A DNA stretch of 32,200 nt from Patescibacteria group bacterium (GCA_023484305.1 JAMDAL010000001.1:1-32200), one strand, 5' to 3'; positions 1 to 32,200 are shown, counted from the stretch's first letter. Numbers and translations: made by a program. The notes: generated from the letters alone by a model not told the origin.

Positions 1-171
1 GTTTTCTTGATTTCCTTTTTGTTCGGTCTGTTCTCCTAAAACGCGGGTAGAATGTTGGTTTTGAACAACCGTGACTGCCCCTAAGAGAAGAATAGACAAC
101 ATGATTAAAGGAAGTAGATATTTCAACTTTATACTGGTGTCTTTTTTAGTTTTTTTTGAGTCGTCTTTCAT
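1..171 (-). CDS. Membrane-anchored or secreted protein, partial (runs off window start)
   Basis: Manual translation from ATG 171: MKDDSKKTKKDTSIKLKYLLPLIMLSILLLGAVTVVQNQHSTRVLGEQTEQ..., open to base 1. Basic N-terminus plus hydrophobic helix. Candidate promoter TTGACT-17-TAGTCT at 231-203. Confidence 0.65.
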   Translation of the reverse strand, partial: MKDDSKKTKKDTSIKLKYLLPLIMLSILLLGAVTVVQNQHSTRVLGEQTEQKGNQEN

Positions 172-270
172 TAAAGTGGTTTTATAATTGTCCTCTATCT
201 TCAGACTATAAAAGTTTTTACTAAAAGTCAATAGTTTTGATAAGAAGTTCGAGTTTGTTGTAAAGTTGCA

Positions 271-420
271 CGCTTTGAGTATATCCTTAGAAACACTATC
301 CAAACAGCTCTTTACTTAAAAGAGCCAACAATCTTTACGGTCAACAACCTGCTTACGGATCCGGACTTTCAAAAAGAGGCCATGACGTTTACGATGAAAA
401 TCTTAAAAATTTCCGGTCCA
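271..420 (+). pseudogene. Frameshifted fragment of a TraD/VirD4-like (HerA-type) coupling ATPase
   Basis: Frame at 271 reads RFEYILRNTIQTALYLKEPTIFTVNNLLTDPDFQKEAM, then a shifted frame at 390 reads YDENLKNFRS. From memory this resembles the R-x-EYILRNT...LLTD...LKNFW segment of CPR coupling-protein-like ATPases. No start codon; in-frame stop at 241. Confidence 0.55.
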
Positions 421-435
421 TTGTTTTCAATAATA

Positions 436-481
436 TACTCATTTATTTTTCACCGTCATTCCATGGTTGGTTATATATAGT
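436..481 (+). promoter_or_regulatory. Direct-repeat box 1 plus -10
   Basis: CTCAT(438), TTCAC(449), TCCAT(460) at 11-bp period; TATAGT at 476-481. Confidence 0.65.
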
Positions 482-508
482 GAGACTACGAAAGGAGGTG
501 AAAAAAAT

Positions 509-799
509 ATGAACAAACAAAAACTCATTCCGTTTATGGCAGCTGCTTTTGTCCTTCTGGGTGGAGCGGTCACAGGTATGCGTGCACTTGGCCCGTCCAT
601 GGTCCATGCACAAGCGCCGTCAGCTCAAATTAAACAGGCTGCTCCTGAAAAAGGGGAGGTCGTTGAAGTGCAAGGAAAAGAAAGCGCGAAAACCAGTGAA
701 CCGGCCAACGAACAGGCGCAGGAGAAAAACCTAGCAGGAAGCGGTCACCAGGATGCCAACGGCACAAACGTCGACCATCAGTTTGAAGGCGTCGAATAA
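509..799 (+). CDS. Small secreted protein with acidic, His-containing C-terminus (GHQD...VDHQFEGVE)
   Basis: Strong SD AAAGGAGGTG at 491-500 before ATG 509; signal-peptide-like N-terminus; terminator follows. Confidence 0.8.
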   Translation: MNKQKLIPFMAAAFVLLGGAVTGMRALGPSMVHAQAPSAQIKQAAPEKGEVVEVQGKESAKTSEPANEQAQEKNLAGSGHQDANGTNVDHQFEGVE

Positions 800-822
800 G
801 CCTACAGCAGTGGTAATGCTGG

Positions 823-852
823 CAAAACAAGAGGGTAACACCTCTTGTTTTG
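823..852 (+). terminator. Intrinsic terminator hairpin
   Basis: Perfect 12-bp stem CAAAACAAGAGG/CCTCTTGTTTTG, 6-nt loop, T-rich tail. Confidence 0.75.
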
Positions 853-866
853 TTATTATACACCGG

Positions 867-900
867 TTTTCATCGTATTTTCACGCAACATGACGATAAT
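867..900 (+). promoter_or_regulatory. Direct-repeat box 2 plus -10 (leaderless geometry)
   Basis: TTTTCAT-CGTA-TTTTCAC; GATAAT at 895-900, 6 nt before ATG 907. Confidence 0.65.
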
Positions 901-906
901 TAAAAA

Positions 907-1986
907 ATGAGAGGAAATTCATATAAACATAGACAAAAATCAATTGTTATCTTTACGGCTTTTTTAATATTCAGTTTTTGCATCCTTTCTTTGGTTTTTA
1001 GCGACCAAGCAAAAGCTCTTATCGCCGATAATATGCTGCGCCCGTTTATTGGCAACACAAAAACAGTCACCATAGAAGCCGCATATTTGAATGCGGTTGA
1101 CAAAACCAAGACGTTAAAAAACGGTTTACTTAACACCAAGGCAGAAAGTGCAAGGATTATAAATCCTGCTCAAACATATGGTTCGTCACATTTTGGGTTG
1201 GATAACATCCGCCCACTTTTAACAGATTACCCTGTACAAGGAGAGGGCGTATGGGATACGGTAAAAACGCATGCGGGCACAATATTATTAGCAAAAACAT
1301 TTCTGCGGGTAGATCCCCATAGGCCAACAAGCGAAGTTACCATAGTCAAGATGAATATGAATGAACTTTACCTTCATCTGGCCCCCGAAAAAGGAAAAAT
1401 TCCATCCACGATAATTAGAAACGGCAAGCTTATTGCGGCATTTAATGGCGGCTTTCAACAAAAAGACGGCCATTACGGATTTGTCATCGACAATCGAACA
1501 TATCTTCCTCTCAAAAACAATCTGGCGACCCTAGTTATTCCTTACCACGGCCAGCCCAGGATAATACAGTTTAACGGGCAACGTTTAAATCCAAACGAAA
1601 TCGAAGCCATACGGCAGAACTGTCCTATGCTTATTGAAAATGCCGTTATAACAACCAATCTTCCCGCCTGGAATACGGAGTCGTGGGGATTAACCATAAC
1701 CAACTCGATGTTTACCTGGCGTTCGGGATTAGGAGTAACCAGGAATGGAAATCTTATCTATGCGGCAGGACCGTCCCTTACCCCCAAAACCCTGGCAATA
1801 GCGCTTCAAAAAGCCGGGGCAATCAATGCCATGCAATTAGATATCAATTTCCCCTGGACCAGATATTCTGTCTTTACGTACAGAAAAGGCGTTATACATG
1901 GTAAACCGGTAAATTGGCAAATGGAGCCGAACCAACGGTATTTTACCGGATACAACAAAGATTTTTTCTATGTAACGAGAAAGTAA
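907..1986 (+). CDS. Phosphodiester glycosidase (NAGPA/DUF2233-like) family protein, membrane anchored
   Basis: N-terminal TM; motifs AAFNGGF, WRSGLG, AMQLDIN. Confidence 0.75.
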   Translation: MRGNSYKHRQKSIVIFTAFLIFSFCILSLVFSDQAKALIADNMLRPFIGNTKTVTIEAAYLNAVDKTKTLKNGLLNTKAESARIINPAQTYGSSHFGLDNIRPLLTDYPVQGEGVWDTVKTHAGTILLAKTFLRVDPHRPTSEVTIVKMNMNELYLHLAPEKGKIPSTIIRNGKLIAAFNGGFQQKDGHYGFVIDNRTYLPLKNNLATLVIPYHGQPRIIQFNGQRLNPNEIEAIRQNCPMLIENAVITTNLPAWNTESWGLTITNSMFTWRSGLGVTRNGNLIYAAGPSLTPKTLAIALQKAGAINAMQLDINFPWTRYSVFTYRKGVIHGKPVNWQMEPNQRYFTGYNKDFFYVTRK

Positions 1987-2004
1987 ACCTGTATATGAGC
2001 CTTA

Positions 2005-2039
2005 TTCTCATTATATTCCCATGTCCATAGCACTACACT
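2005..2039 (+). promoter_or_regulatory. Direct-repeat box 3 plus -10
   Basis: TTCTCAT-TATA-TTCCCAT; TACACT at 2034-2039. Confidence 0.7.
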
Positions 2040-2051
2040 ATTCACAATGAT

Positions 2052-3281
2052 ATGCACACCATAATGCAAAAGAAATCAATCCTATTTATCGGTATCACAG
2101 TGTTGATTGGAATAATCATCTATTTGCTTTGGTTAACCTTTCAGCCAGCTAATTCAGCCGTTTCTTTTCAAACAGCATCTGTAAAAAAAGGGAATCTGCT
2201 TGTTACCGTTTCTGCTTCCGGTTCCGTTGTTTCCGGCGGGAACACGAATGCAATAACACAAGCCAGTGGCACAGTAATACATATATATGTTACAGAAGGG
2301 CAGAATGTGCATACAGGAGATAAGGTAGCCGAGATACAGCTTGATTCACAAGGGATACAGAATAGGGATAAATTATGGAGTACCTATTTAACGGCAAAAG
2401 CGGCGGTGGACAGCGCAAAAGCAAAACAATACGCGCTGCAGGCGCAAATGTTTTTGGACAACCAGACATTCATGAACGGGGCGGTAGCAAGCCACTTTCC
2501 TTCGTACAACCCCACCTATGCGCAGCAAAATGCCCAGTGGTTATCCAGCGAAGCGCAGTATAAAAACCAAGAGACCGTTATTCAACAGACAGAAGCAGAT
2601 CTTGCCACCGCGTGGCGTGATTATCAAAATGTAACCGGAATAATCACCGCTCCTATAAGTGGAACTGTTGTTGGTCTAAAAGCGGTTGCCGGTATGCCGA
2701 TTACCGGCAGTATCGGAGCAAATTCAGCTCCTGTGGTTATTGCTACAATCCAATCCGAAAAGCAGGTATTCGGGCAGTTTCAGGTATCAGAGATGGATAT
2801 GTCAAAGGTCAAAGTCGGACAAAAGGCACAGCTATCGATCCCCGCTATCCCCGGAAAAACATTTACCGGGACCGTTGTTGCAATTGATACAACAGGCTTA
2901 GCAAAATCAGGAGTTATCCATTTTCCGGTTACCGTTACCATAGATAATCCGACGCCCGAGCTTTTGACCAATATGTCTGCTGACGTAAAGATTATTCTTT
3001 CGGAAAAAGATCATGTACTTCTTTTGCCTTCCAGCGCCATACAAGATACCAATGGGACTTCTGTCGTTCAGGTTATTAAAAATGGGAAAGTCTTCCCGGT
3101 TCCGGTACAGGTTGGCCTTTCAAACGATACACAAACAGAAATTCTTTCCGGTCTTTCACAAAACGATATGGTGGTGACAGGAACGCAAGCAAATCAAATA
3201 CCACAAAATGGGATAACGTCGCCTTTTGGCGGACTATCCAGCCCGGGAAACCTGGCTGCCCCGGGAGGCGGGAATAATTAA
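2052..3281 (+). CDS. Efflux membrane fusion protein (MacA-like adaptor)
   Basis: N-terminal TM; lipoyl motifs (SGTV..IYVTEGQNV, ITAPISGTV); VSEMDMSKVKVGQ; VGLSND; upstream of an ABC ATPase and permease. Confidence 0.9.
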   Translation: MHTIMQKKSILFIGITVLIGIIIYLLWLTFQPANSAVSFQTASVKKGNLLVTVSASGSVVSGGNTNAITQASGTVIHIYVTEGQNVHTGDKVAEIQLDSQGIQNRDKLWSTYLTAKAAVDSAKAKQYALQAQMFLDNQTFMNGAVASHFPSYNPTYAQQNAQWLSSEAQYKNQETVIQQTEADLATAWRDYQNVTGIITAPISGTVVGLKAVAGMPITGSIGANSAPVVIATIQSEKQVFGQFQVSEMDMSKVKVGQKAQLSIPAIPGKTFTGTVVAIDTTGLAKSGVIHFPVTVTIDNPTPELLTNMSADVKIILSEKDHVLLLPSSAIQDTNGTSVVQVIKNGKVFPVPVQVGLSNDTQTEILSGLSQNDMVVTGTQANQIPQNGITSPFGGLSSPGNLAAPGGGNN

Positions 3282-3289
3282 TAATATCT

Positions 3290-3976
3290 ATGATTCAAAT
3301 AAAAAATATTACAAAAGTTTATAAAACCGGCACAACTGATACAGTCGTTTTAAATAACGTTTCTTTCCATGTAGAGTCCGGTGACTATGTGGCGGTCATG
3401 GGGCCATCAGGAAGCGGAAAGTCAACACTTATGCATATTTTAGGACTATTGGATAGTCCTACGTCCGGGACATATGAGCTGGATAAGAAAAATGTGGCAG
3501 CATTTTCAAAGTATGAGCTGGCAAAACTAAGAAACAGAAAGATCGGTTTTGTTTTTCAGGCTTTTAATCTTCTTCCGAGGGCAAGTGCCTTGAAAAACGT
3601 GATGCTTCCCATGCTTTATGGAGGAGTAGAAGAGAAAGAACGGCAAAAACAGGCGGCGGCACTTCTAACCCGCATCGGTCTGGAAAACCGCTTGCTTAAT
3701 ACCAGTAACGAACTCTCAGGTGGAGAAATGCAGCGGGTGGCCATTGCGCGGGCGCTGGCTATGAATCCGGATATTCTTCTGGCCGATGAACCAACTGGCA
3801 ACATTTCCACGCAACAGGGAAAAGAAATTATGGAAATATTCAATACGCTTAATGGTCAAGGTCACACCATCATTATCATTACCCATGACGCGCTTATTGC
3901 CCATTATGCAAAAAGGATTATTAAACTTCAGGACGGGAAAATTATCTATGACGGGAAACGAAGAGGAATTCTATGA
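3290..3976 (+). CDS. ABC transporter ATP-binding protein (MacB/LolD type)
   Basis: Walker A GPSGSGKST, IGFVFQAFNL, LSGGEMQRV, LLADEPTGN. Confidence 0.95.
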   Translation: MIQIKNITKVYKTGTTDTVVLNNVSFHVESGDYVAVMGPSGSGKSTLMHILGLLDSPTSGTYELDKKNVAAFSKYELAKLRNRKIGFVFQAFNLLPRASALKNVMLPMLYGGVEEKERQKQAAALLTRIGLENRLLNTSNELSGGEMQRVAIARALAMNPDILLADEPTGNISTQQGKEIMEIFNTLNGQGHTIIIITHDALIAHYAKRIIKLQDGKIIYDGKRRGIL

Positions 3977-5181
3977 ACATATCTGACCTTATTGCTATCG
4001 CTTCAGAGGCTTTAACCCTTAATAAACTGCGGTCGTTTTTGGCGACGCTCGGGATCATTATCGGCATTGCTTCGGTCATTGCTCTACTCTCTTTGGGAGA
4101 AGGCAGTAAGCAGGCTATAAAATTGGAGGTAAACTCTCTGGGAGCAAATTTACTGACGATCATTCCGGGCGGCACGCTGCAACTGCCAGGGAGCAGCACA
4201 AGCCTTACTCTTTCCGATGCAAAGGCAATACAAAATGATTCTTCCATACGACGTTTTGTCTCCAACGTTTCTCCTGAGTTTTCTCAAGATACGAATGTGG
4301 CAAGCTCCCGGACATATATTGGCACGACCGTATTGGGGGTAATGCCCGATTACCAATTTGTGCATATGGTCGGCATGCAACAAGGCGCGTTTTTGACTCA
4401 AAGTGACGAAAAACAGCTGGGAAAGGTGGCGGTTATTGGTCCACAGGTTGCCTCATCTCTTTTTGCAAACGCTAATCCCATAGGTCAGACAGTTCATATT
4501 AACGACACACCGTTTACCGTAATCGGCGTTACCCAGTCAAAAGGCGGTAATATAGCACAGTACCAGGATAATTTAGTATATATCCCTCTTTCAGTTGCAG
4601 AATATGAGGTTTTTGGCATCCATTACTTAAACGCAATTTCCGTATCGGTGAAAAACGCTAAAGTTATGACGGAAGCTCAAAACGCCCTCGGATATTTCTT
4701 GCTGGCGCGCCACCATATCATAAATCTGACTTTCGCGGATTTTTCAATTATTTCGCAAAAAGACGTTTTGCACGTAGCCTCACAAACATCGCAAACCCTG
4801 ACGTCTCTTTTAGGCGGCATAGCTGGAATTTCTTTAGTGGTTGGGGGAATTGGCATTATGAATATCATGCTTATGGCGGTGATTGAACGGACACGGGAAA
4901 TCGGGCTTCGAAAAGCGTTGGGGGCAACAGAGAGTGAAATCATCTTTCAATTTTTGTCGGAGACCGTAATTTTGACATTTTTAGGAGGAATATCGGGTAT
5001 GGTCATTGGCGTTTTAACCACAACAGCAATTTCGTTTTTCCTTCAGACCTTATTGGTTATTTCTCTATCTGGAATTATTCTTTCGCTTGGAGTTTCATGT
5101 TTCATGGGCATTGTTTTTGGATTATACCCGGCATATAAGGCGGCGGCACTTTCGCCAATTGAGGCGTTGCGGTATGAATAG
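3973..5181 (+). CDS. ABC transporter permease (MacB/FtsX type)
   Basis: RSFLATLGIIIGIASV, SLVVGGIGIMNIM, ERTREIGLRKALGA, PIEALRYE; ATGA overlap with the ATPase. Confidence 0.95.
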   Translation: MNISDLIAIASEALTLNKLRSFLATLGIIIGIASVIALLSLGEGSKQAIKLEVNSLGANLLTIIPGGTLQLPGSSTSLTLSDAKAIQNDSSIRRFVSNVSPEFSQDTNVASSRTYIGTTVLGVMPDYQFVHMVGMQQGAFLTQSDEKQLGKVAVIGPQVASSLFANANPIGQTVHINDTPFTVIGVTQSKGGNIAQYQDNLVYIPLSVAEYEVFGIHYLNAISVSVKNAKVMTEAQNALGYFLLARHHIINLTFADFSIISQKDVLHVASQTSQTLTSLLGGIAGISLVVGGIGIMNIMLMAVIERTREIGLRKALGATESEIIFQFLSETVILTFLGGISGMVIGVLTTTAISFFLQTLLVISLSGIILSLGVSCFMGIVFGLYPAYKAAALSPIEALRYE

Positions 5182-5213
5182 TTACAATTTTTATTTGAAT
5201 GGAGGTGACGGAA

Positions 5214-5438
5214 ATGAAAAATAAAACAATCTTTATTATTTTTGTTGGTGCTTTACTTCTTATCATAGTTATATTAGGAGGCCGGCTTTTTTTAAAAAGG
5301 CAAAATCAAACAGTGGCTCAACCAGTTAAAGCAACCCAACAGCAAACAAACGATAATAGTCAACAAGGAGGTCCTGATGTTCCTGGACAAGGGGGAGCAG
5401 GCGAAGGGGCAGGCGCGGGTGCGGGAGGAAATAACTAA
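5214..5438 (+). CDS. Small single-pass membrane protein with Gln/Gly-rich tail
   Basis: SD GGAGGTG before ATG 5214; hydrophobic N-terminus. Confidence 0.7.
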   Translation: MKNKTIFIIFVGALLLIIVILGGRLFLKRQNQTVAQPVKATQQQTNDNSQQGGPDVPGQGGAGEGAGAGAGGNN

Positions 5439-5439
5439 G

Positions 5440-5610
5440 TGATTTTTGATGTATTCCGGCCAAAACCCGGGAGAATCCAACTATAAACGAAATAACTGCA
5501 AAAAGTATTCCAAATTTGCGGTTATACACGAACACCACTGAAGCGATGACCATAGTGAGCCAGGTATGGTCAAAAGGGAATCCATTATCTGCAACGTGAT
5601 ATAACAAGCA
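5440..5610 (-). pseudogene. Remnant of a PAP2 (BcrC-like) phosphatase
   Basis: HVADNGFPFDH (canonical FPSDH/FPSGH) and SRVLAGIH; N-terminal half and the C-terminal HxxxD continuation are missing. Confidence 0.7.
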
Positions 5611-5622
5611 AGGAAATCATAT

Positions 5623-6627
5623 ATGAAAGCATTGTTGTCACTATTTCTTTTGTTTTTCAGTACGTTATTTGGTCCACACCACACTGTTGTACCAACTCCA
5701 TCTCCTGCGCCTCGCATGACTCAAACCTGTCCAACCGGATACATTCTTGTTCCTGGGAATACGTATTTCCATACCGCTGACTTTTGTGTGATGAAATACG
5801 ATGCAAAATGTACCAACGCTGATCCGAAATGTGTTACTTATGAAGGAGTTTACCGGAATGATGCTCCCGGATGTCGTTGTGACGGAAATTATCGTGTGGT
5901 ATCCACACCAAATGGAGCACCAATCACCTATATTCCGGAAGCCAATGGTACTAATATTTCAGCCAAAAAGTATTGCGAGCGTTCTGGGGGACATTTGATC
6001 ACAAATCCCGAATGGATGACGATAGGCAGAAATGTGGAACAGGTAGCTAATAACTGGTGTAATAAGGACGGAACCGGGTGTGAAAATTCTCCTGGAGCTC
6101 CCGGCAAAATTTTAGCGAATGGTCACAATGACAGTATTCCTTACCGAGCCCTTCAGGCGGGAAACGATAGTCAACCCTGTTTTGGGACGACCGCCGATGG
6201 AAGTAACATCTGTGGTGGAGTCTCTTCACAAAAAAGAACGTTACAGATATCCAACGGAAATATCATCTGGGATTTTGCCGGAAATGTGTGGCAGTGGATT
6301 GACGTTACTATTCCTCTAAAAGATGAACCACTCTCACTGAATGCTAAAAACAAGTTTGCACAATGGGTTTGGGAGGAATTCCAATCAGTGCCATACGATC
6401 CAAATAATATGCCCTCAAATCCCAACTGGAATTCAGCCCAGGGTGTCGGAAGAGTTTTCCATTATAGTTATTATGGAAATATAGATCCAACTCTCTATAC
6501 TTTTATTCGTGCTGGAAACTGGAGACACGGTTACGACAGCGGTGCCTTTACTTATCACGAACAACCTGTTCCCAGTAAAACCGGAATAGATGATGTGGGG
6601 TTTAGGTGTATCATGTCTCCTTCCTAA
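5623..6627 (+). CDS. Secreted Cys-rich FGE-sulfatase/C-type-lectin-fold protein
   Basis: Signal peptide; CPTGYILVPG, FCVMKYDAK, LITNPEW, DFAGNVWQW, RAGNW, terminal GFRC. Confidence 0.8.
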   Translation: MKALLSLFLLFFSTLFGPHHTVVPTPSPAPRMTQTCPTGYILVPGNTYFHTADFCVMKYDAKCTNADPKCVTYEGVYRNDAPGCRCDGNYRVVSTPNGAPITYIPEANGTNISAKKYCERSGGHLITNPEWMTIGRNVEQVANNWCNKDGTGCENSPGAPGKILANGHNDSIPYRALQAGNDSQPCFGTTADGSNICGGVSSQKRTLQISNGNIIWDFAGNVWQWIDVTIPLKDEPLSLNAKNKFAQWVWEEFQSVPYDPNNMPSNPNWNSAQGVGRVFHYSYYGNIDPTLYTFIRAGNWRHGYDSGAFTYHEQPVPSKTGIDDVGFRCIMSPS

Positions 6628-6657
6628 TTCTTATCGTATGAAGTTTATTATCAGTAT

Positions 6658-7272
6658 TTAATCTTTTGTTTCCGCACCGCCTGCGGCTTTGGTTACTTGT
6701 GCCGTCTGTATGGCGTAATCAGGAGTACTGACTATAACAGTAAACTGTAGCTTGTTACTTGAAGTAAAGTAGAGACTGTGGGTATTGACCGTAAAGTGAT
6801 CGGCGCCGGATTTATTGTCAAAATGGATGGTCTGCGTTTTTCCAGCGGGTAATACAAAGTCGCTTAATTTCTTGTAATATCCTTCTTTTTTGTTGGTGAC
6901 CGTATCAGTAAGCGTGTAATATACTTCAAATGACGTCAGGTCTTTTGAGGTAAGATTTTGCAAGGTTAATTGTAAATGATCATTCACCGGATTTCCTGCT
7001 GCGTCCGTGTTATTTTCTACCACAAGCGAGGTGATTTTAAATCCCGGTGCTGTTGCGGTATTTTTAATAGGATTTGGGTAGAGCCCAGGGACGACATCCT
7101 GCGGATCTTGGGATGCTGTTTGAATACTGGGTATTTGAGAAGGTGTAGTTTGAGTAGTAGGCGTTGTCGAAAGTGGCGCTACGGTTTTTTTGGGAGATGG
7201 GGTTCCTGACACAAGATATATCGTTACAATAAACGCTAACGCGACGCCCCCAAGAATAATAAATTTATTCAT
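6658..7272 (-). CDS. Membrane-anchored extracellular protein (Thr/Pro linker plus beta-rich domain), probably accessory to the ABC exporter
   Basis: 204-aa ORF with N-terminal TM; own promoter box. Confidence 0.8.
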   Translation of the reverse strand: MNKFIILGGVALAFIVTIYLVSGTPSPKKTVAPLSTTPTTQTTPSQIPSIQTASQDPQDVVPGLYPNPIKNTATAPGFKITSLVVENNTDAAGNPVNDHLQLTLQNLTSKDLTSFEVYYTLTDTVTNKKEGYYKKLSDFVLPAGKTQTIHFDNKSGADHFTVNTHSLYFTSSNKLQFTVIVSTPDYAIQTAQVTKAAGGAETKD

Positions 7273-7283
7273 ATGCTTACTTT

Positions 7284-7318
7284 ACTATAAAATATCCGTC
7301 ATGGGAATAACATGAAAA
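7284..7318 (-). promoter_or_regulatory. Direct-repeat box 4 plus -10
   Basis: Minus strand TTTTCAT-GTTA-TTCCCAT, 11 nt, then TATAGT (7289-7284). Confidence 0.7.
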
Positions 7319-7321
7319 TGA

Positions 7322-8302
7322 CTATGTCGTCCTTTCTAGAATTCGTTTATTACTAAATACCGCAAAGGACAATAAAATACCCCCGGTGTAGTAACCAATT
7401 ATCCATACGAGATCGCCCCATTTGTCCTGAAAGATTACGGATAGATTTTTGTCATTGTACATGGTCTTAATTCCTAATGTTGCAAATGCAAGTCGCTCAT
7501 AATGTTTCTCAACCGAACTTTCCTCCAAGGCATTTCGAAGTGTTTCATAGGTTTTAAATTTTGTGATAACCCCTTGTTGCTGGGTTTTGGTCATATGCAT
7601 GCTATTAAAAAATCCTCCGGGAATTTGGTTATCAGGATCCATAGTATCGCCGATTTGCGGGATAACAAGAACGATCAGTAACCATATAACAAATCCAACA
7701 ATAAGCGCATTCGGAAGATTTTTGAAAAGAAGCGACAATAACGCCGAAAGACTATAGAAAAACATGAGATAGATATAGGAAAAGATAAATGCCAGAAAAA
7801 GTTTTACGAGTTCTAGAGGTAAAAACACCACGTGTCCGACGCCGGTAATGGCAATCATTATAAAAAGGACAATCAATCCAAGTAGTGAGGCGAGTAATAA
7901 GCTGTTTCCCAGGATTTTGCCAAAGATGAATGATAACTTGCTCACCGGCCGACTCAATAAAAGTTGCAGAGTATTATTCCCTTTTTCCTTGGCAATACTA
8001 ATGTAACCCAGGATAATACCAATAATGGCACCGATGATTTCAAGGTACTCAATGGTGCCACGAAGCATCTGGAGGGGAAAATATTGTGGTTTTTCCAAAA
8101 CCGCCCCTGTTTGACCTAAAGCATGGAGCTGCGCGATAGCCGCATTATATTGCGCCACCTGTGACTGAAAATTAAATCCGGCTACCAGAAGCGAAACCGC
8201 AGTCAAAAACAGGAGAAAAACGACGAGCGTTACAAACAATACGTTTTTTATGGCATCGCTATATTCTTTTTTGGCGATAATCCAAACCGCTCTGTTATTC
8301 AT
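7322..8302 (-). CDS. ABC-2 type permease (NosY-like)
   Basis: IAKKEY, GYISIAKEKGNNTLQLLLSRPVS, GKILG; start MNNRAV overlaps the upstream stop. Confidence 0.85.
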   Translation of the reverse strand: MNNRAVWIIAKKEYSDAIKNVLFVTLVVFLLFLTAVSLLVAGFNFQSQVAQYNAAIAQLHALGQTGAVLEKPQYFPLQMLRGTIEYLEIIGAIIGIILGYISIAKEKGNNTLQLLLSRPVSKLSFIFGKILGNSLLLASLLGLIVLFIMIAITGVGHVVFLPLELVKLFLAFIFSYIYLMFFYSLSALLSLLFKNLPNALIVGFVIWLLIVLVIPQIGDTMDPDNQIPGGFFNSMHMTKTQQQGVITKFKTYETLRNALEESSVEKHYERLAFATLGIKTMYNDKNLSVIFQDKWGDLVWIIGYYTGGILLSFAVFSNKRILERTT

Positions 8303-9251
8303 AGATTTTGTCATTGGTGACGGCATACCGTACGAATGCATAAAAACTTAGTACCATAACTAGGAGATAATACAAAAGGAGCAAAAGAACCGACGAAGCA
8401 TTTTTAATAATCGTGGTAGAAAGAGGAAGAGATTGAAACTGTTTTTGCGTTTCCAAAAGAGACTGTGCAAGTGCGGTATATTGCTGTTCGATAGAAATAG
8501 GTGCAAGAGCCGTGTGCATGAGCGTAAAAAAGGGACCCGTAGGAGTGACAACCGCAATATTGGTTGGGTTTAACAAAGCAACTGGATTTTGGCCCGTAGT
8601 AAGTTCAGGGAAAATGAAGGTAACTGCAATCCAAACAATAACCGGCACCAGTAATGCGAGCGACTCCGTATCAAAAACAATTGCCGCCCAGAGGCCGATC
8701 ATGGCAAAGATGAGCATATAAAAAAACGAAACAAAATAAAACAAAGCTAACTTCTCTGTTTCCAGAAGTGACAATTGTTGATGAGGGATAAAATATGAAG
8801 AAATAACGCTGATGAGAAACGTGATGAGGACAATTGAAAAAAGGGCGATAGTAATCCCTATGATTTTCCCGAGGATGAAAGTTTTTTTTTCGACTGGTTT
8901 GGAAAAAATTAACTGGATGACTCTTGATTTTCGTTCCCTGATGAATGCTCGATGTCCCATGACAATTGCCATGAGCGAACCGATCAGAAAAATATAGATA
9001 ATCATATTACGGAAAATGGCAAGAGCCGGAATCCCGATAAACGGATTAGGAGGAATCTGGGTTACCCCCGCATGTTGTAAACTCAGAACGGATGCTTTAT
9101 AGATGGCCAGAATGGTAGTTTTTGTGGTCCAGCCAATATAGCTTGAAAATAAGGTCATTAAAAGGAATACTCCCAAAAGAAGAATAAAGGTGCGTTCGCG
9201 GATCAAGACGCGAAGTTCGTTTGCGACAATAGCTGAAAGTTGTTTTGCCAT
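8295..9251 (-). CDS. ABC-2 type permease (NosY-like), paralogue
   Basis: GHRAFIRERKSRVIQLIFSKPV, GKIIG; multiple TMs. Confidence 0.85.
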   Translation of the reverse strand: MAKQLSAIVANELRVLIRERTFILLLGVFLLMTLFSSYIGWTTKTTILAIYKASVLSLQHAGVTQIPPNPFIGIPALAIFRNMIIYIFLIGSLMAIVMGHRAFIRERKSRVIQLIFSKPVEKKTFILGKIIGITIALFSIVLITFLISVISSYFIPHQQLSLLETEKLALFYFVSFFYMLIFAMIGLWAAIVFDTESLALLVPVIVWIAVTFIFPELTTGQNPVALLNPTNIAVVTPTGPFFTLMHTALAPISIEQQYTALAQSLLETQKQFQSLPLSTTIIKNASSVLLLLLYYLLVMVLSFYAFVRYAVTNDKIYE

Positions 9252-9267
9252 AGCATATATTTTGTGA

Positions 9268-10011
9268 TTACCATGCGCTTTTTATTTCCATCTGCACGTA
9301 TATTTCTTCTAATGAAACCTCGCTGGGAAATCGGCGGAGCGTATTATCTAAGGTATCTTTATAAATAAGTTTTCCATGATTTAAAACGCCAATTGAAGTG
9401 CATGTTTTTGCAACTTCAGATAACAAGTGAGTATTCATGAAGATGGTTAAATGCTTTTCTTTATTGAGCCGGATAATAATCTCGCGTAGATTTTTAATAC
9501 CAAGGGGATCAAGTCCTGAGGTTGGTTCATCAAGAAACAGGATTTTGGGTTCGTGAATAATTGCCTGCGCAATGCCAATCCGTTGACGCATTCCTTTGGA
9601 AAACTCACCGAGTTTTTTATTCTCAATACCGTGAAAGTCTAAAAAATCAAGAACCTCTTCAATATGTTTCCTGACATCATGCACACCCGATAGTCTTGCA
9701 AAGAAGCTTAGATTTTCAAATGCAGTTAAATTATTGTAAAACGTCACGTTCTCTGGCAGATACCCAATTTGTTGTCGAACCTGCATACTTTGCTTGACCG
9801 TGTCATATCCCGCAACCGTTGCTGTACCAGAAGATGGTTGCATCAGGGTGGTAAGAATATTGATCGTTGTCGTTTTCCCCGCGCCGTTATGCCCTAAAAA
9901 TCCAAAAATCTCTCCTTCATACACCTCTAGATCTAAATTGTCTAAGGCATTGTGGGAATTATAGGAATGACTTAAAGACTTCGTCTCAATTACGGGATTG
10001 TTGGTATTCAT
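9268..10011 (-). CDS. ABC-2 transporter ATP-binding protein
   Basis: GHNGAGKTT, FSKGMRQR, LFLDEPTSGLDP. Confidence 0.95.
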   Translation of the reverse strand: MNTNNPVIETKSLSHSYNSHNALDNLDLEVYEGEIFGFLGHNGAGKTTTINILTTLMQPSSGTATVAGYDTVKQSMQVRQQIGYLPENVTFYNNLTAFENLSFFARLSGVHDVRKHIEEVLDFLDFHGIENKKLGEFSKGMRQRIGIAQAIIHEPKILFLDEPTSGLDPLGIKNLREIIIRLNKEKHLTIFMNTHLLSEVAKTCTSIGVLNHGKLIYKDTLDNTLRRFPSEVSLEEIYVQMEIKSAW

Positions 10012-10017
10012 GCTTTT

Positions 10018-10051
10018 ATTTTATTTATAGAAGATGGGAATAAAATGAAAA
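10018..10051 (-). promoter_or_regulatory. Direct-repeat box 5 plus -10 (leaderless geometry)
   Basis: Minus strand TTTTCAT-TTTA-TTCCCAT, 10 nt, TAAAAT (10023-10018), 6 nt, ATG 10011. Confidence 0.7.
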
Positions 10052-10178
10052 AACATTTAGTTCGTTTTTGTCCTGTCCTGCTTTTTCATTATATGGGGTT
10101 CAAAACATCTATCAAAAAGTGGGTGTTTAAGCCTGTCGAAAAATGCAACGTGGAGAAGAAGGTCTTTTTAGTTTTATA

Positions 10179-10863: not shown

Positions 10864-11256
10864 CTATAAATCTTTAAACACTTTTGCTAACGATGGACCA
10901 AGCACTTGAATTGAAAACTCATAAAACTGGCCAAAAGGCACAATGTGCACAGTTAAATTCATTTTTAGCTTTTCGCCCATTTTCTGTATCAGATCATTTG
11001 CGGTTTCCGGATCGGATTTACTATTTGAAAGGTGAGCAAAAGAATGGAGAATTACTGTACTCGTATTATTTTTATTTGCTAGCCATTTAATGTTCCCGAC
11101 AGCTTTATCGACCACATCGTTCTTATCTTTGTCGGTTTCTTCTACATGGATAAATATAACTAGAGAGTTATCAAAACTCACCTTTTCTGTTTCAGGAGAG
11201 TCTGAACTATATGGCTTATACCAAAAACTTTTTGTGTGAAACATTAACAGCTTCAT
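10864..11256 (-). CDS. Free-standing archaeal-type threonyl-tRNA synthetase editing domain (DTD-like fold)
   Basis: MKLLMFH, LVIFIHVEETD, LHSFAHLS, PFG..YEF match the archaeal ThrRS N-terminal pattern (LLIH, VE..D, FAHLS, PFG) as recalled. Confidence 0.8.
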   Translation of the reverse strand: MKLLMFHTKSFWYKPYSSDSPETEKVSFDNSLVIFIHVEETDKDKNDVVDKAVGNIKWLANKNNTSTVILHSFAHLSNSKSDPETANDLIQKMGEKLKMNLTVHIVPFGQFYEFSIQVLGPSLAKVFKDL

Positions 11257-11639
11257 ATTTTACTTCTATCTATAATTCCTCTAATAATTTCATCAACTTC
11301 TCTAGGTAAAGAACCTAAGTTTGCCTTAGGGAAAAATTGAGGCAATATGATAGGTCGCATACCGGAAATATAAGTTTTACCGCCCTTTTGATAGACATTT
11401 ATCTTGCAAGGAAGACAAAGACCTATCTTTAGATCAGCCTGTAAAGCATTGTAGGCATTTTTAGCGTTGCATATCTCAATAATTTTGAATGGCTCAATCG
11501 TAAAACCTTTTTCAGCCAAAGTTTTCGTAACATCATGGGTATAAAGCACCCGAAATCCAGCCTTTTTTGTTTCCTGCTCCACTATGGCAACCGCATCTTC
11601 AAATGATTTTTCCGTAGTTACTGTATAATCAAAATCCAT
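11253..11639 (-). CDS. DUF302 family protein
   Basis: GFRVL..HDV, IIEICNA, IGLCLPCKINVY; SD AAAGGAG before ATG 11639. Confidence 0.85.
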   Translation of the reverse strand: MDFDYTVTTEKSFEDAVAIVEQETKKAGFRVLYTHDVTKTLAEKGFTIEPFKIIEICNAKNAYNALQADLKIGLCLPCKINVYQKGGKTYISGMRPIILPQFFPKANLGSLPREVDEIIRGIIDRSKI

Positions 11640-11655
11640 AAATTCTCCTTTCAAA

Positions 11656-11979
11656 CTAAAATGTTAATACTTTATCGCTTGTTGCAACCAGAGAATATAA
11701 ATCTGCAATCCCACCTTTGGGACAACTTTTACTGTCTTGCTGGTGGCGCATATTCATGCATGTACCACATGCGATGAGTTCAGCTTTTTCTGCCTGTAAA
11801 AACTTATCAACCTGTTCGTTTAGATTAAATTGTTCCTGATTTACTTTGTCATACTCCACCGCTTCACCTAAAAGAAACATTCTGACTTCATCGCCTTTTG
11901 TTAAGGCTAGATTTGCTAACCTAAAAGCATTCCAGTTGGTTTCTAAATTTTTGGTAGAAAGAATTATTGATAATTTCAT
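11656..11979 (-). CDS. DsrE/DsrF-like sulfur-relay protein
   Basis: WNAFRLA, VRMFLLGEAVE, ACGTC, SDKVLTF. Confidence 0.85.
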   Translation of the reverse strand: MKLSIILSTKNLETNWNAFRLANLALTKGDEVRMFLLGEAVEYDKVNQEQFNLNEQVDKFLQAEKAELIACGTCMNMRHQQDSKSCPKGGIADLYSLVATSDKVLTF

Positions 11980-12344
11980 ACCGGTTGACTCTTTTTGTAA
12001 CCCTCTAAAAACCTATGGATAAGTTTATCTGTTCGGGTAAGGGAGCTTGCTGCTGACTTTAAGAAGTCTTTTCCTTCCTGAGTAATGGTATAAGTCCTTC
12101 TGTCTGGACCTGAATCATTTTTCTCCCAATCGGATGTTACCCAATCATCTCTTTCCATTCTTCGTAAAGTCCTGTATAAATCGCCAATATCCACTTTTTC
12201 ACCGCAATGTTTTTCTAAATCCTCCATAAGTCCATATCCATGAGAGGAACCTTTTGAAAGGAGAAGTAAAATACACGGCTCAATAAACCGTTCAATATTG
12301 CCAAAATCCCTTGACCGAAAAGAACAGCCACAAGTTCTGCACAT
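11976..12344 (-). CDS. PadR family transcriptional regulator with N-terminal CxxCxC
   Basis: HGYGL, LYRTLRRMERD, GPDRRTYTITQEG; start reassigned to MCRTCGC because it lies downstream of the promoter. Confidence 0.9.
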   Translation of the reverse strand: MCRTCGCSFRSRDFGNIERFIEPCILLLLSKGSSHGYGLMEDLEKHCGEKVDIGDLYRTLRRMERDDWVTSDWEKNDSGPDRRTYTITQEGKDFLKSAASSLTRTDKLIHRFLEGYKKSQPV

Positions 12345-12354
12345 ATATGTTAAT

Positions 12355-12383
12355 ATCATATAGCATGACAAATTAAATGTCAA
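12355..12383 (-). promoter_or_regulatory. Sigma70 promoter with palindromic operator
   Basis: TTGACA-17-TATGAT on the minus strand; TGACA-N7-TGTCA at 12366-12382 overlaps the -35. Confidence 0.75.
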
Positions 12384-13441
12384 GTCCTTGTACTGGTCCA
12401 GTACTTCTTGGACTCTAAGTCCTCCTTTAACATAAAAGCCATGGGTGTTAAGTAACCCAAGGCTTGGTGTGGTCTGACTGTATTGTAGTATAACAGATAA
12501 TTAATGAGTTTCTGGTTAAAACTGTGGATATCTTCAAGTTCTTCTGTGTGAGAGTCAACAAATTCCTCTTGAATGGTTCTGTTAAACCTTTCAATAAAAG
12601 CATTGGACTTAGGAGTATGAGGATAGGAAAAATAGTGGGTGATGTTCTTTCTTTTCAGGTAAGAATCAAGTTCTTTTTGAAATTCCAATCCGTTGTCAGT
12701 TTTAACTGCCTTGACTTTAAAAGGAGCTACTAGCTCCAGTTTTTGATAAAAGTCTAAGGCTATGGCACTACTGAGCCCTTTGTAGGAAAAGGCAAAAGAA
12801 AACTTGGAATAGACATCTAAACAAGTCAGAATATATCTTTTTAAACCCAAATCAAATCTGACGATGGTATCAATCTGAAGAAGCTCTCCTGGGCTTTTGG
12901 ACTTAAAGTTTTTGCTTACTCTGTCCTTGTGCCTTCTAATTCTTGTTTTTGCCCATTGAGAGCTGGCATCATGATAAACCCTGCCCAGTTTTAAATAACA
13001 CCAATGGTTTCTGTTAATGATCCTGCCTACTTTAGAAGCAGAAACTAAAGGTAAACCTTCTTTTTCACAGTAAGCATCCAGAAGTATTTTAATCTTTTGT
13101 TTACCAAACCTGCCATTGTGTAGTCTGAGGTTATGAATAAACTCTAGTATCTTTGAGTCTACCAACATCTTTCTAGTAGTTTTAGGTTTGGTTGATAAGG
13201 GGACTAAAGACATTAGGCTACCACCAGACTTTTTTAACTGTCTCTTCCACAAAAAGAGAGTACTTCTGCCTACTTGATAGGCCTCCTTAGTAGCAGTAAA
13301 ACCAAACTGATCATAGAAGGACAAAACTTTCATTCTGAACTTGGCCACATCACTAACAGAATATTGTTGAGAAGAAGAAAAATATTTCATGAGGGTAGCA
13401 TAGCCTACTACCCCTTTAAAAAGAAACCTGGTTTTGTCCAA
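12380..13441 (-). CDS. IS481-family DDE transposase (rve integrase core)
   Basis: HTH N-terminus; PGELLQIDT, KTDNGLEF, PKSNAFIERFNRT, YNTVRPHQAL. Start could be ATG 13390. Confidence 0.92.
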   Translation of the reverse strand: MDKTRFLFKGVVGYATLMKYFSSSQQYSVSDVAKFRMKVLSFYDQFGFTATKEAYQVGRSTLFLWKRQLKKSGGSLMSLVPLSTKPKTTRKMLVDSKILEFIHNLRLHNGRFGKQKIKILLDAYCEKEGLPLVSASKVGRIINRNHWCYLKLGRVYHDASSQWAKTRIRRHKDRVSKNFKSKSPGELLQIDTIVRFDLGLKRYILTCLDVYSKFSFAFSYKGLSSAIALDFYQKLELVAPFKVKAVKTDNGLEFQKELDSYLKRKNITHYFSYPHTPKSNAFIERFNRTIQEEFVDSHTEELEDIHSFNQKLINYLLYYNTVRPHQALGYLTPMAFMLKEDLESKKYWTSTRT

Positions 13442-26052: not shown

Positions 26053-26604
26053 ATGGCAAATTATGAAAAAGATCAAAAACTGGTAGCAGAGATTTTAAAA
26101 GGAAACGAAAAAGCCCTGCGGGAATTTTATCAAACCCATTCTCCCAGGCTTTTTAGCTATATTTTAAGAAAAGTTGCCAAAGAAGAAGACAGCCAGGAAC
26201 TTTTGCAGGACACCCTCTTTGCCGGTCTGGAAGCCATGCGCGACTATGAGGGTAAAAGCAGTCTCTTTACATTTCTCTGTGCCATCGCCAACCATAAGGT
26301 GGTTGATTTTTACCGCAAAAAAAAGCTTAGACAAATGCTGTTTTCCCAAATGCCGAATTTGGGAAATTTAATCAGCGAACTGTTAAGCCCCGAAGAGCGA
26401 TACAATAAAACGGAGCTTAAAGAAAAAATAAAACTCTGCTGGGCCAGTTTGCCGCAAAGATACCAGACTATTTTGCGGCTAAAATACGTGGAGGGTTTAA
26501 CGGTTGTGCAGATTGCCGGCGATTTAAAAGAAACCGTCAAAAGCATAGAGTCAGCGCTTTTTCGCGCCAGAAAGGCCTTTATCAAAGTCTATACACAAAT
26601 ATAG
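26053..26604 (+). CDS. ECF-type RNA polymerase sigma factor
   Basis: Region 2 ELLQDT..FTFLCAIANHKVVDFYRK; region 4 LP..YQ.IL.LKYVEGL..IA..LFRAR. Confidence 0.92.
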   Translation: MANYEKDQKLVAEILKGNEKALREFYQTHSPRLFSYILRKVAKEEDSQELLQDTLFAGLEAMRDYEGKSSLFTFLCAIANHKVVDFYRKKKLRQMLFSQMPNLGNLISELLSPEERYNKTELKEKIKLCWASLPQRYQTILRLKYVEGLTVVQIAGDLKETVKSIESALFRARKAFIKVYTQI

Positions 26605-31765: not shown

Positions 31766-32200
31766 ATGAAAGAAATTACAGTTTCCGCCCCGGGAAAAGT
31801 GCATTTAACCTCTGCCCATATTGTGGTTTATGGCAAACCCGCCCTTCTTTGTGCCATAAATTTGCGCGTGACAGTCTCAATAAAAAACGAAAACCATCAG
31901 GGAAAAATTATCATCTCCAGCAATATCTTTAAAGATGCTTTAACTTTAGAGAACAAAAAGATTAAAACTTTTACAGCCCAGGCCAAAAAGAGCTGGGAAG
32001 AGTATGGAAAAACTAACAACATTGAATTAATAAAACCCCTTACCGAGCCTGCCGGTTTTGTCAAAATCATTATAGGAGAAACGCTGGCATATCTTAAGAA
32101 AGATTTAAAAGACGTGGAAATCAATATTAATTCCCAGGTTCCCTTGGGTGCCAACTTTGGCGGTTCGGCCTCAGTTTCCGCGGCTCTTTTTGGCCTGGGC
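31766..32200 (+). CDS. GHMP kinase, mevalonate kinase-like, partial and atypical
   Basis: Manual translation, open to window end: MKEITVSAPGKVHLTSAHIVVYGKPALLCAI...NSQVPLGANFGGSAS. Confidence 0.85.
   Translation, partial: MKEITVSAPGKVHLTSAHIVVYGKPALLCAINLRVTVSIKNENHQGKIIISSNIFKDALTLENKKIKTFTAQAKKSWEEYGKTNNIELIKPLTEPAGFVKIIIGETLAYLKKDLKDVEININSQVPLGANFGGSASVSAALFGLG

Follow-up and report, generated by a model that had tools for sequence, protein, structure and literature searches.

In Escherichia coli, the Pho box lies about 10 base pairs (bp) before the -10 element, in the place of the -35 element. Two papers describe the box as two CTGTCAT repeats with a 4-bp spacer, 18 bp altogether, from which PhoB contacts σ70 and recruits the polymerase (PMC4447250, PMC4415409), and describe the autoregulated phoB promoter as being repressed at high levels of phosphorylated PhoB (PMC4447250). 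Likewise, DNA recognition by PhoP of Mycobacterium tuberculosis is described in PMC4832192 as a tandem head-to-tail dimer on direct repeats of 7 bp that are strictly 4 bp apart, where a third or fourth subunit is possible. Here we describe a group of putative promoters of this kind, located between positions 436 and 10,051 of a 32,200-nucleotide (nt) stretch of DNA from a Patescibacteria group bacterium (GCA_023484305.1, JAMDAL010000001.1:1-32200; hereafter the window), together with the response regulator that probably acts on them. The Patescibacteria (candidate phyla radiation) are mostly uncultured and have tiny genomes with very few regulators, and to our knowledge almost no regulon has been worked out for them. 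No paper was found in the literature searches that deals with this motif, with regulator boxes of the TTCTCAT type or with two-component regulons in the Patescibacteria. The window corresponds to contig C33 of assembly G000, which comprises 723,085 bp in 54 contigs with 40% G+C and is 83% complete.

Five direct repeats precede five transcription units of the window (Table 1). Each of these boxes is composed of two half-sites of 7 bp (TTYYCAY) separated by a 4-bp spacer, which amounts to 18 bp with a period of 11 bp, and the consensus over all five is a 7-4-7 direct repeat, TTYTCAT-N4-TTCCCAT. The five repeats had been listed in an earlier note on this DNA with their coordinates, their -10 hexamers and spacers of 10-11 nt, all of which read exactly as claimed. 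The same note had placed the repeat where the -35 would be expected. Indeed, no -35 was called at any of the five promoters in a scan for the σ70 -35/-10 consensus with a threshold of at least 9/12, which is consistent with the box, spanning approximately -41 to -23, occupying the place of the -35. The five sites are flanked by unrelated sequences, yet they keep the 18-mer and its distance to the -10. In three units, namely the genes starting at 907 and 10011 and, in most relatives, the regulator gene described below, 6 nt separate the -10 from the ATG. Since transcription would then be expected to start at the A of the ATG, several transcripts of the island should be leaderless. As a separate observation, a near-consensus σ70 promoter (TTGATA-16-TATAAT, 11/12) is located on the minus strand at 10115-10088, about 40 nt upstream of box 5, and the downstream exporter operon may thus have a constitutive promoter besides the regulated one.

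The frequency of the motif was assessed in several ways. The degenerate pattern TTYTCAYNNNNWTYYCAY, which was written from the five window sites themselves, is matched five times in the window as compared to 0.03 expected matches, and none of 100 dinucleotide shuffles reached five. Across the whole assembly the same five matches were found and no others. The motif is therefore enriched, and not merely as frequent as in shuffled AT-rich sequence, an outcome that the earlier note had still allowed for. A relaxed core, YYCAY-N6-YYCAY-N10/11-TANNNT, also yields five matches genome-wide: four of the window sites, box 2 being missed owing to its GATAAT, and C13:101, the sole match outside the window, which lies in the promoter of a regulator gene on contig C13. 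As a less circular test, we used a matrix built from 50 sites of other genomes only, with 20 Markov-1 simulated genomes as a control. At 15.8 bits or more, which is the score of the weakest window site, this matrix finds eight places in the assembly versus a mean of 1.6 (maximum 4) in the simulated genomes, and at 22 bits or more it finds four versus 0.05. The four top-ranking places are C33:7318, 10051 and 2005 and C13:99, with 447 and 867 ranking seventh and eighth. Six of the eight places are thus the five window sites and one upstream of the C13 response regulator gene, the other two (C41:9176 and C15:2205) being located within open reading frames (ORFs) and lacking a -10.

Only two OmpR-family regulators, recognised by their Trans_reg_C winged helix, are present in the assembly. 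One of these is the C13 protein (Response_reg 103.8 bits, Trans_reg_C 91.7 bits), which is encoded in an operon with a histidine kinase. The region upstream of its gene (C13:99-133) reads CTCCCAT-TTTC-TTCCCAT (box at 99-116), N11, TATAAT, 8 nt, ATG. According to the earlier note, the window contains an orphan regulon of five promoters, the two-component system of which lies elsewhere. The two-component system was found outside the window, as anticipated, in the form of the regulator-kinase operon on C13. This cognate candidate stands behind the same box, so that the regulon can no longer be called orphan, its separation from the regulator being attributed to a contig break. All five promoters are present, but their total is at least six when the own promoter of the regulator-kinase operon is included.

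Table 1. Positions of the boxes, the -10 hexamers and the genes in the window, and of the two OmpR-type regulator loci on other contigs of the assembly.
Feature	Position	Strand	Description
Box 1	447..464	+	TTTTCACCGTCATTCCAT = TTTTCAC-CGTC-ATTCCAT; promoter of the small secreted protein gene
-10 for box 1	476..481	+	TATAGT, 11 nt past box; then 27-nt leader with AAGGAGGTG
Box 2	867..884	+	TTTTCATCGTATTTTCAC = TTTTCAT-CGTA-TTTTCAC; promoter of the NAGPA-like gene
-10 for box 2	895..900	+	GATAAT, 10 nt past box; 6 nt to ATG (leaderless geometry)
Box 3	2005..2022	+	TTCTCATTATATTCCCAT = TTCTCAT-TATA-TTCCCAT; promoter of the HlyD/MacB-type pump operon
-10 for box 3	2034..2039	+	TACACT, 11 nt past box; ATG at 2052
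Box 4	7301..7318 (7318-7301)	-	TTTTCATGTTATTCCCAT = TTTTCAT-GTTA-TTCCCAT; promoter of the 204-amino-acid protein (p204) gene
-10 for box 4	7284..7289	-	TATAGT, 11 nt past box; 11 nt to ATG
Box 5	10034..10051 (10051-10034)	-	TTTTCATTTTATTCCCAT = TTTTCAT-TTTA-TTCCCAT; promoter of the ABC-2 exporter operon
-10 for box 5	10018..10023	-	TAAAAT, 10 nt past box; 6 nt to ATG (leaderless geometry)
Small secreted protein	509..799	+	96 amino acids; signal peptide, variable acidic middle, invariant C-terminal motif
NAGPA (phosphodiester glycosidase, PF09992) protein	907..1986	+	359 amino acids; 35.2 bits vs cut-off 25; N-terminal hydrophobic segment, membrane-anchored
Pump operon	2052..5181	+	HlyD-type adaptor 2052-3281, ABC ATPase 3290-3976, MacB_PCD/FtsX permease 3973-5181
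Small membrane-anchored ORF after pump operon	5199-5438	+	
Cys-rich secreted protein	5623-6627	+	334 amino acids; no box upstream; conserved beside the pump operon in L062
p204	6658..7272	-	204 amino acids; membrane anchor at the N-terminus, linker of low complexity, conserved beta-sandwich domain spanning roughly residues 74-202
ABC-2 exporter operon	7322..10011	-	ATPase 9268-10011, ABC-2 permeases 8295-9251 and 7322-8341
C13 operon	C13:142-816 (regulator), 818-1825 (kinase)		335-amino-acid histidine kinase; then DUF2127 membrane protein
Second OmpR-type regulator	C36:6118-6758 region, continued C49:1-4267		gene from C36:6246 to contig end; split by contig break

We then considered relatives of the system. 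The C13 regulator was scanned against one genome per species, which returned 80 loci. As a query in the same-family genomes G002 and G003 the protein gave no match, and its best match among the reference genomes G001-G040 (same family or class) was 49% identical. The footprint of the regulator promoter was based on the loci with a regulator 68-96% identical and upstream DNA on the contig (n=19), the regions having been picked by gene position only. All 19 regulator promoters show the box, 10-11 nt, a -10, about 6 nt and the ATG; 18 were recognised by script and one (L067) by eye, with one deviant half-site. A box scan of 21 loci (189,794 bp) and the G000 regions gave 59 matches with an ORF following, from which L063:1761 (inside a gene), L075:1942 and L071:2479 were dropped, and six belong to G000. 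The remaining 50 relatives' sites comprise 18 regulator promoters and 32 promoters of other genes: nine for small secreted proteins with the HQD motif described below, five for p204, four for NAGPA, three for ATP-binding cassette (ABC) ATPases, one for HlyD, three for PepSY proteins, two for DUF347 membrane proteins and five for unclassified products. The spacer measures 11 nt in 41 of the 50 sites and 10 nt in nine; 16 of the sites have TATAAT as the -10 and 12 have TATACT.

At orthologous promoters identical 18-mers are held in surrounding DNA that is just 69-72% identical. The 18-mer of box 1 recurs unchanged before its L063 orthologue (TTTTCAT-CGTC-ATACCAT in L062), that of box 4 before the p204 orthologues of L063, L066 and L142, and that of box 5 in L066 (TTTTCAT-CTTA-TTCCCAT in L063). 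The box 5 promoters of L066 and L063 also share the 10-nt spacer, the TAAAAT and the 6 nt to the ATG with that of G000. An orthologue of box 2 is found in L062, with boxes also preceding the NAGPA genes of L063, L064 and L066, and the L062 orthologue of box 3 is TTCTCAT-CATA-TTCCCAT. In most loci, the small-protein gene with its own box directly adjoins the regulator-kinase operon, and the box-controlled position after the kinase is taken in some relatives by a gene for a PepSY-domain protein or for a different acidic secreted protein instead. The view that one OmpR/PhoB-type box unites these units into one regulon, as put forward in the earlier note, thus finds support in the conservation of the box, which precedes orthologous genes in some 20 other genomes and also the regulator gene. 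A contig from the mine-drainage run X4 matches only the 40-nt promoter stretch 440-479 (box 1 and its -10, with four differences) and then continues like an L063-type small-protein leader; judged from this alignment, the promoter is more conserved across organisms than its flanks.

The gene order in a close relative places the counterparts of the two contigs side by side. Locus L062, the regulator of which is 96% identical to that of C13, is colinear with C33:420-5438 and 5599-6446 (83-88% nt identity) as well as with C13:139-2439 (87%), with about 40 nt between its divergent small-protein and regulator promoters. Because L062 is colinear on both sides, the two-component system is the left-hand neighbour of the island in L062, and C13 and C33 are likely to be adjacent in G000 as well. 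BLAST of the C33 and C13 contig ends against the genome disclosed no shared repeat. A second locus of the same assembly, L063 (regulator 85% identical), contains the ABC-2 operon, p204, the small protein and NAGPA. The ABC-2/p204 half of the window resembles L063 (69-72% nt identity), and the pump half resembles L062 (83-88%). The relative behind L062 and L063 thus encodes two paralogous regulators (96% and 85%), the boxes of which cannot be told apart, whereas in G000 both target sets lie side by side and one regulator of the C13 type was assembled.

We consider it highly probable that the five boxes are the sites for a tandem dimer of the C13 OmpR/PhoB-family regulator, which would replace the -35 at the promoters of an autoregulated exporter and secreted-protein island. 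Three features of a Pho-box-type promoter were found, namely a 7-4-7 repeat, about 10 bp to a σ70-type -10 that lacks a -35, and a linked cognate regulator gene. The 7-4-7 form, the similar half-site and the distance of 10-11 nt to a -10 without a -35 point to activation of the PhoB type. The phosphorylated C13 regulator would bind the box and recruit RNA polymerase at the place of the -35, as PhoB does, and the same box at the regulator-kinase operon would bring about positive autoregulation. The units switched on would be the small secreted protein, the NAGPA-like surface protein, the HlyD/MacB-type pump, the ATPase with its two ABC-2 permeases, and p204.

It could alternatively be argued that the boxes are bound by another regulator, either the one split between C36 and C49 or an unassembled paralogue like the 85%-identical protein of L063, with the C13 regulator sharing the sites or not. 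The relative with two paralogous systems and similar boxes provides a precedent, the two halves of the window resemble different relatives, and the assembly is only 83% complete. However, the promoter of the C36/C49 regulator (TTCTCAG-CCCT-TTTTCAG, 9 nt, TATAAT) has half-sites ending in CAG and a shorter spacer; this distinct box, which may resemble an MprA box, occurs once in the genome, and the gene is followed by those for another 335-residue kinase and a second HlyD/ABC/MacB operon. Moreover, of the only two Trans_reg_C genes in the assembly, it is the C13 gene that has a box of the window type and is the syntenic neighbour in L062. We therefore regard binding by another regulator as quite unlikely.

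A repressing role of the regulator, whereby the box would overlap the -35 region and block the polymerase at otherwise active promoters, is very unlikely in our view. Such a role would fit the strong σ70-like promoter just upstream of box 5, and also a third half-site (YTTCCAG/C; YCA[CGT]) that fills the spacer and abuts the -10, a position at which binding would hinder the polymerase, in 10 of the 19 regulator promoters versus 1 of 37 target promoters (C13:121-127 in G000, the others among L064-L078). On the other hand, the five promoters have no recognisable -35, so that they should be weak without an activator, and the 10-11 nt to the -10 in 50/50 relatives' sites correspond to the geometry of PhoB-type activation, a phasing that a repressor does not need. 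Positive autoregulation is also usual in the OmpR/PhoB family. If the C13 regulator is an activator, the third half-site might, speculatively, cap autoinduction at high regulator levels.

Extremely unlikely is the possibility that the repeat represents the -35-side element of an alternative sigma factor. The window does encode a protein of 183 amino acids (26053-26604, plus strand) that resembles the extracytoplasmic function (ECF) sigma factors and is the only Sigma70_r2 match in the assembly, and the promoters lack a canonical -35. Yet the -10s are of the housekeeping type, as is apparent from the hexamers at the relatives' sites, and an 18-bp tandem repeat ending 10-11 nt from the -10 is unlike a single -35 at 16-18 nt. 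In addition, no box precedes the sigma gene, the only other C33 matrix match listed at 12 bits or more being at 32010, and the box tracks the regulator gene across genomes. An ECF-type promoter was therefore rejected on the type of the -10, the geometry of the repeat and the absence of a box at the sigma gene. The gene for the primary sigma factor was not found in the assembly and presumably falls within the unassembled 17%.

Lastly, we regard as negligible the chance that the repeats are copies of a duplicated promoter cassette or a fortuitous AT-rich pattern without a shared regulator: although TTTTCAT reads ATGAAAA on the opposite strand, a frequent sequence where genes begin, and although the pattern occurs 0-4 times per genome in G001-G040 (10 times in G023), like a reversed-pattern control, the unrelated flanks, the excess over expectation and the conservation at orthologous promoters speak against it. 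The 18 such matches examined in G001-G003 and G023, many of which are indeed reverse complements of ATGAAAA gene starts, have neither a -10 nor the gene geometry, and these genomes therefore provided no footprint.

Several points weigh against control of the island by the C13 regulator, and against the functions attributed to it. We infer binding, activation rather than repression, and the transcription starts from geometry and conservation, and a look-up of RNA runs for positions 400-10100 of the window listed none. The relatives' sites were collected with a regular expression derived from the window, so that the matrix test is not fully independent, and the relatives are kin, so that the counts overstate the independent support. 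L062 has nothing that corresponds to C33:1-420, in which another gene begins, and both G000 pieces are at contig ends; among public contigs over window positions 1-1200, one Logan contig extends 249 nt past the window start, and none bridges C33 and C13. A second cognate regulator could be missing from the 83%-complete assembly. At distant p204 loci, where several start codons are uncertain, no more than 3 of the 28 upstream regions that could be evaluated have the strict box, and two more show by eye a variant of the TTATCAT-N4-TTCACAT type; the remaining loci show different conserved motifs. Due to this rarity of the strict box, membership in the regulon is lineage-specific. Finally, the functional labels are all below the curated cut-offs, and the fold of p204 is a generic β-sandwich.

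With respect to the genes of the island, the small secreted protein and p204 deserve a closer description. Length and sequence differ from one small secreted protein to another, and the proteins are mostly disordered, the constant parts being the signal-peptidase site (AQxP) and an 18-residue C-terminal motif, GHQD-x2-G-x2-3-(D)HQ-x2-G-x-E, which is invariant among the orthologues L062-L079. The protein belongs to no Pfam or NCBIfam family, and only hypothetical clusters were retrieved from a language-model atlas. Similarly, p204 matched nothing in Pfam or NCBIfam, and the atlas returned only clusters labelled 'hypothetical' or 'lipoprotein family'; at least 149 sequence clusters make up its family, all unnamed or 'hypothetical'. 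An AlphaFold2 model (mean pLDDT 77) depicts a membrane-anchored β-sandwich, which gave generic β-sandwich matches only (Foldseek TM at most 0.37; VIA Z at most 9.4, including the Wzt carbohydrate-binding domain with Z 7.9). In metagenome contigs of other genomes, the p204 gene always follows directly after the genes for an ATPase and two ABC-2 permeases, and an OmpR-type regulator (41-63% identical), mostly with an adjacent kinase, is found at 6 of 31 such loci. From its gene neighbourhood, p204 looks like an accessory subunit of the ABC-2 exporter. The Cys-rich protein encoded at 5623-6627 had no family match even at an E-value of 0.1. Adjoining the island on the minus strand (10864-13441), small genes were found for a stand-alone archaeal-type threonyl-tRNA synthetase editing domain, a DUF302 protein, a DsrE-like protein, a PadR regulator and an rve-family integrase, a composition that suggests a mobile or recently rearranged stretch.

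We infer the signal and the physiological role from this gene content. The island may, as a tentative reading that we hold at somewhat less than even chances, be an inducible module for export and cell-surface defence against membrane-active compounds that is laid out like the lantibiotic-immunity cassettes. The earlier note had taken the units for an inducible envelope-stress or detoxification module, a reading that is likewise conjectural. A metal response is another possibility, considering the mine-waste source and the His/Asp/Glu motif of the small protein. A further idea, which we judge rather unlikely, is a self-signalling circuit in which the Sec-exported small protein or its C-terminal peptide (GHQD...DHQFEGVE, possibly metal-loaded) would be sensed by the kinase loop and would serve as an autoinducer or, in the manner of CpxP, as a feedback brake. 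In the kinase, two membrane helices (residues 10-28 and 80-98) flank an outer loop of about 50 residues, and there is no HAMP domain. The juxtamembrane parts of the loop (WMxxSFGExYIS and AGDVALxQL) are kept in 18/18 aligned sequences (G000 and 17 relatives). Relatives' loci without the HQD-motif small protein retain the same loop. If such a circuit existed, one of only two two-component systems would serve the sensing of cell density or of a partner and switch on the island of exporters and surface proteins.

These findings delineate a defined unit for one of the two two-component systems, consisting of a regulator, a kinase, an 18-bp consensus, a fixed geometry, six promoters and targets in about 20 genomes. 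They also provide clean examples of predicted leaderless, activator-dependent promoters, and they tie two uncharacterised families, p204 and the HQD-motif small protein, to exporters of the ABC-2 and MacB types. Their value lies in annotation and in an experimental handle, and not in a new principle, since switches of this type are ordinary among bacteria, even if this group of tiny bacteria has been little studied.

Lastly, the system was compared with known ones. In the BceRS-BceAB modules, a large FtsX permease with a big outer domain functions without an adaptor and together with an intramembrane-sensing kinase. Here, a permease of 402 residues (MacB_PCD and FtsX) occurs with a separate HlyD adaptor and the kinase has a conserved loop, so that a BceRS-BceAB-type module was rejected. 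A phosphate regulon was rejected as well, because the regulator reached 188 bits with the PhoB model (cut-off 296) and the kinase 205 bits with that of PhoR (cut-off 334), and no gene of the PhoU/PstS family (pst/phoU) was found in the 83%-complete assembly. The best-scoring named families in NCBIfam are RppA/RppB (NF041734) and the heavy-metal regulators CopR/SilR/CztR (TIGR01387), and the heavy-metal systems are also called to mind by the origin of the DNA from mine-tailings and mine-drainage metagenomes and by the His/Asp/Glu-rich end of the small protein. However, the scores all stay under the cut-offs (RppA 228.1 vs 250; cztR_silR_copR 220.5 vs 279.2; RppB 245.1 vs 400), the RppB match covers only kinase residues 71-333, i.e. 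from the second membrane helix on, so that the sensor is not shared, and the record titles of related loci name many other sample types. In the Cpx system, CpxP is a small secreted feedback protein that belongs to the regulon and is encoded beside the regulator and kinase genes. The box-controlled small-protein gene next to the regulator-kinase operon resembles this arrangement, but the proteins have no sequence relation, that of the island being mostly disordered and variable save for its 18-residue motif.

The lantibiotic cassettes LanFEG-LanI-LanRK (NisFEG/NisI/NisRK and SpaFEG/SpaI/SpaRK) are activated by a regulator-kinase pair via direct repeats that replace the -35. They share with our locus an ATPase with two ABC-2 permeases, next to which an extracellular protein anchored in the membrane is encoded, as well as a regulator-kinase pair of the OmpR type, located here on C13. 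Differences were also found: the ATPase scores 199.3 bits with the lantibiotic-protection model TIGR03740 (cut-off 309.75) and higher, 252.2 bits, with a drrA-type model (cut-off 312.45); p204 has no demonstrated homology to LanI, no LanI chain being among the fold matches listed; the outer loop of the kinase has only about 50 residues; and none of the window ORFs, the annotation of which extends to 17.7 kb, was identified as a gene for lantibiotic synthesis.

As regards the regulator itself, DrrD of Thermotoga maritima (E 1e-52) and PhoP of M. tuberculosis (E 1.7e-50) are its nearest solved relatives, PhoP being the closest full-length homologue solved with DNA (PDB 5ED4, 3R0J). The recognition helix NIVETYVKYLRKKI aligns with NVVESYVSYLRRKI of PhoP and is nearly identical to it. 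In contrast, the PhoP motif TCACAGC has only TC-N-CA in common with TTCTCAT/TTCCCAT, and PhoP differs in its regulon and in the sensor of its kinase. The 7-4-7 architecture is shared with the Pho box, with two mismatches between the half-site TTCTCAT and CTGTCAT, and the repression of phoB at high levels of phosphorylated PhoB may have a parallel in the third half-site at the regulator promoters described here, whereas the targets are exporters and secreted proteins. The proposed mechanism is that of textbook PhoB/OmpR-type activation, and by comparison of the gene content the layout appears to resemble most the lantibiotic-immunity modules.

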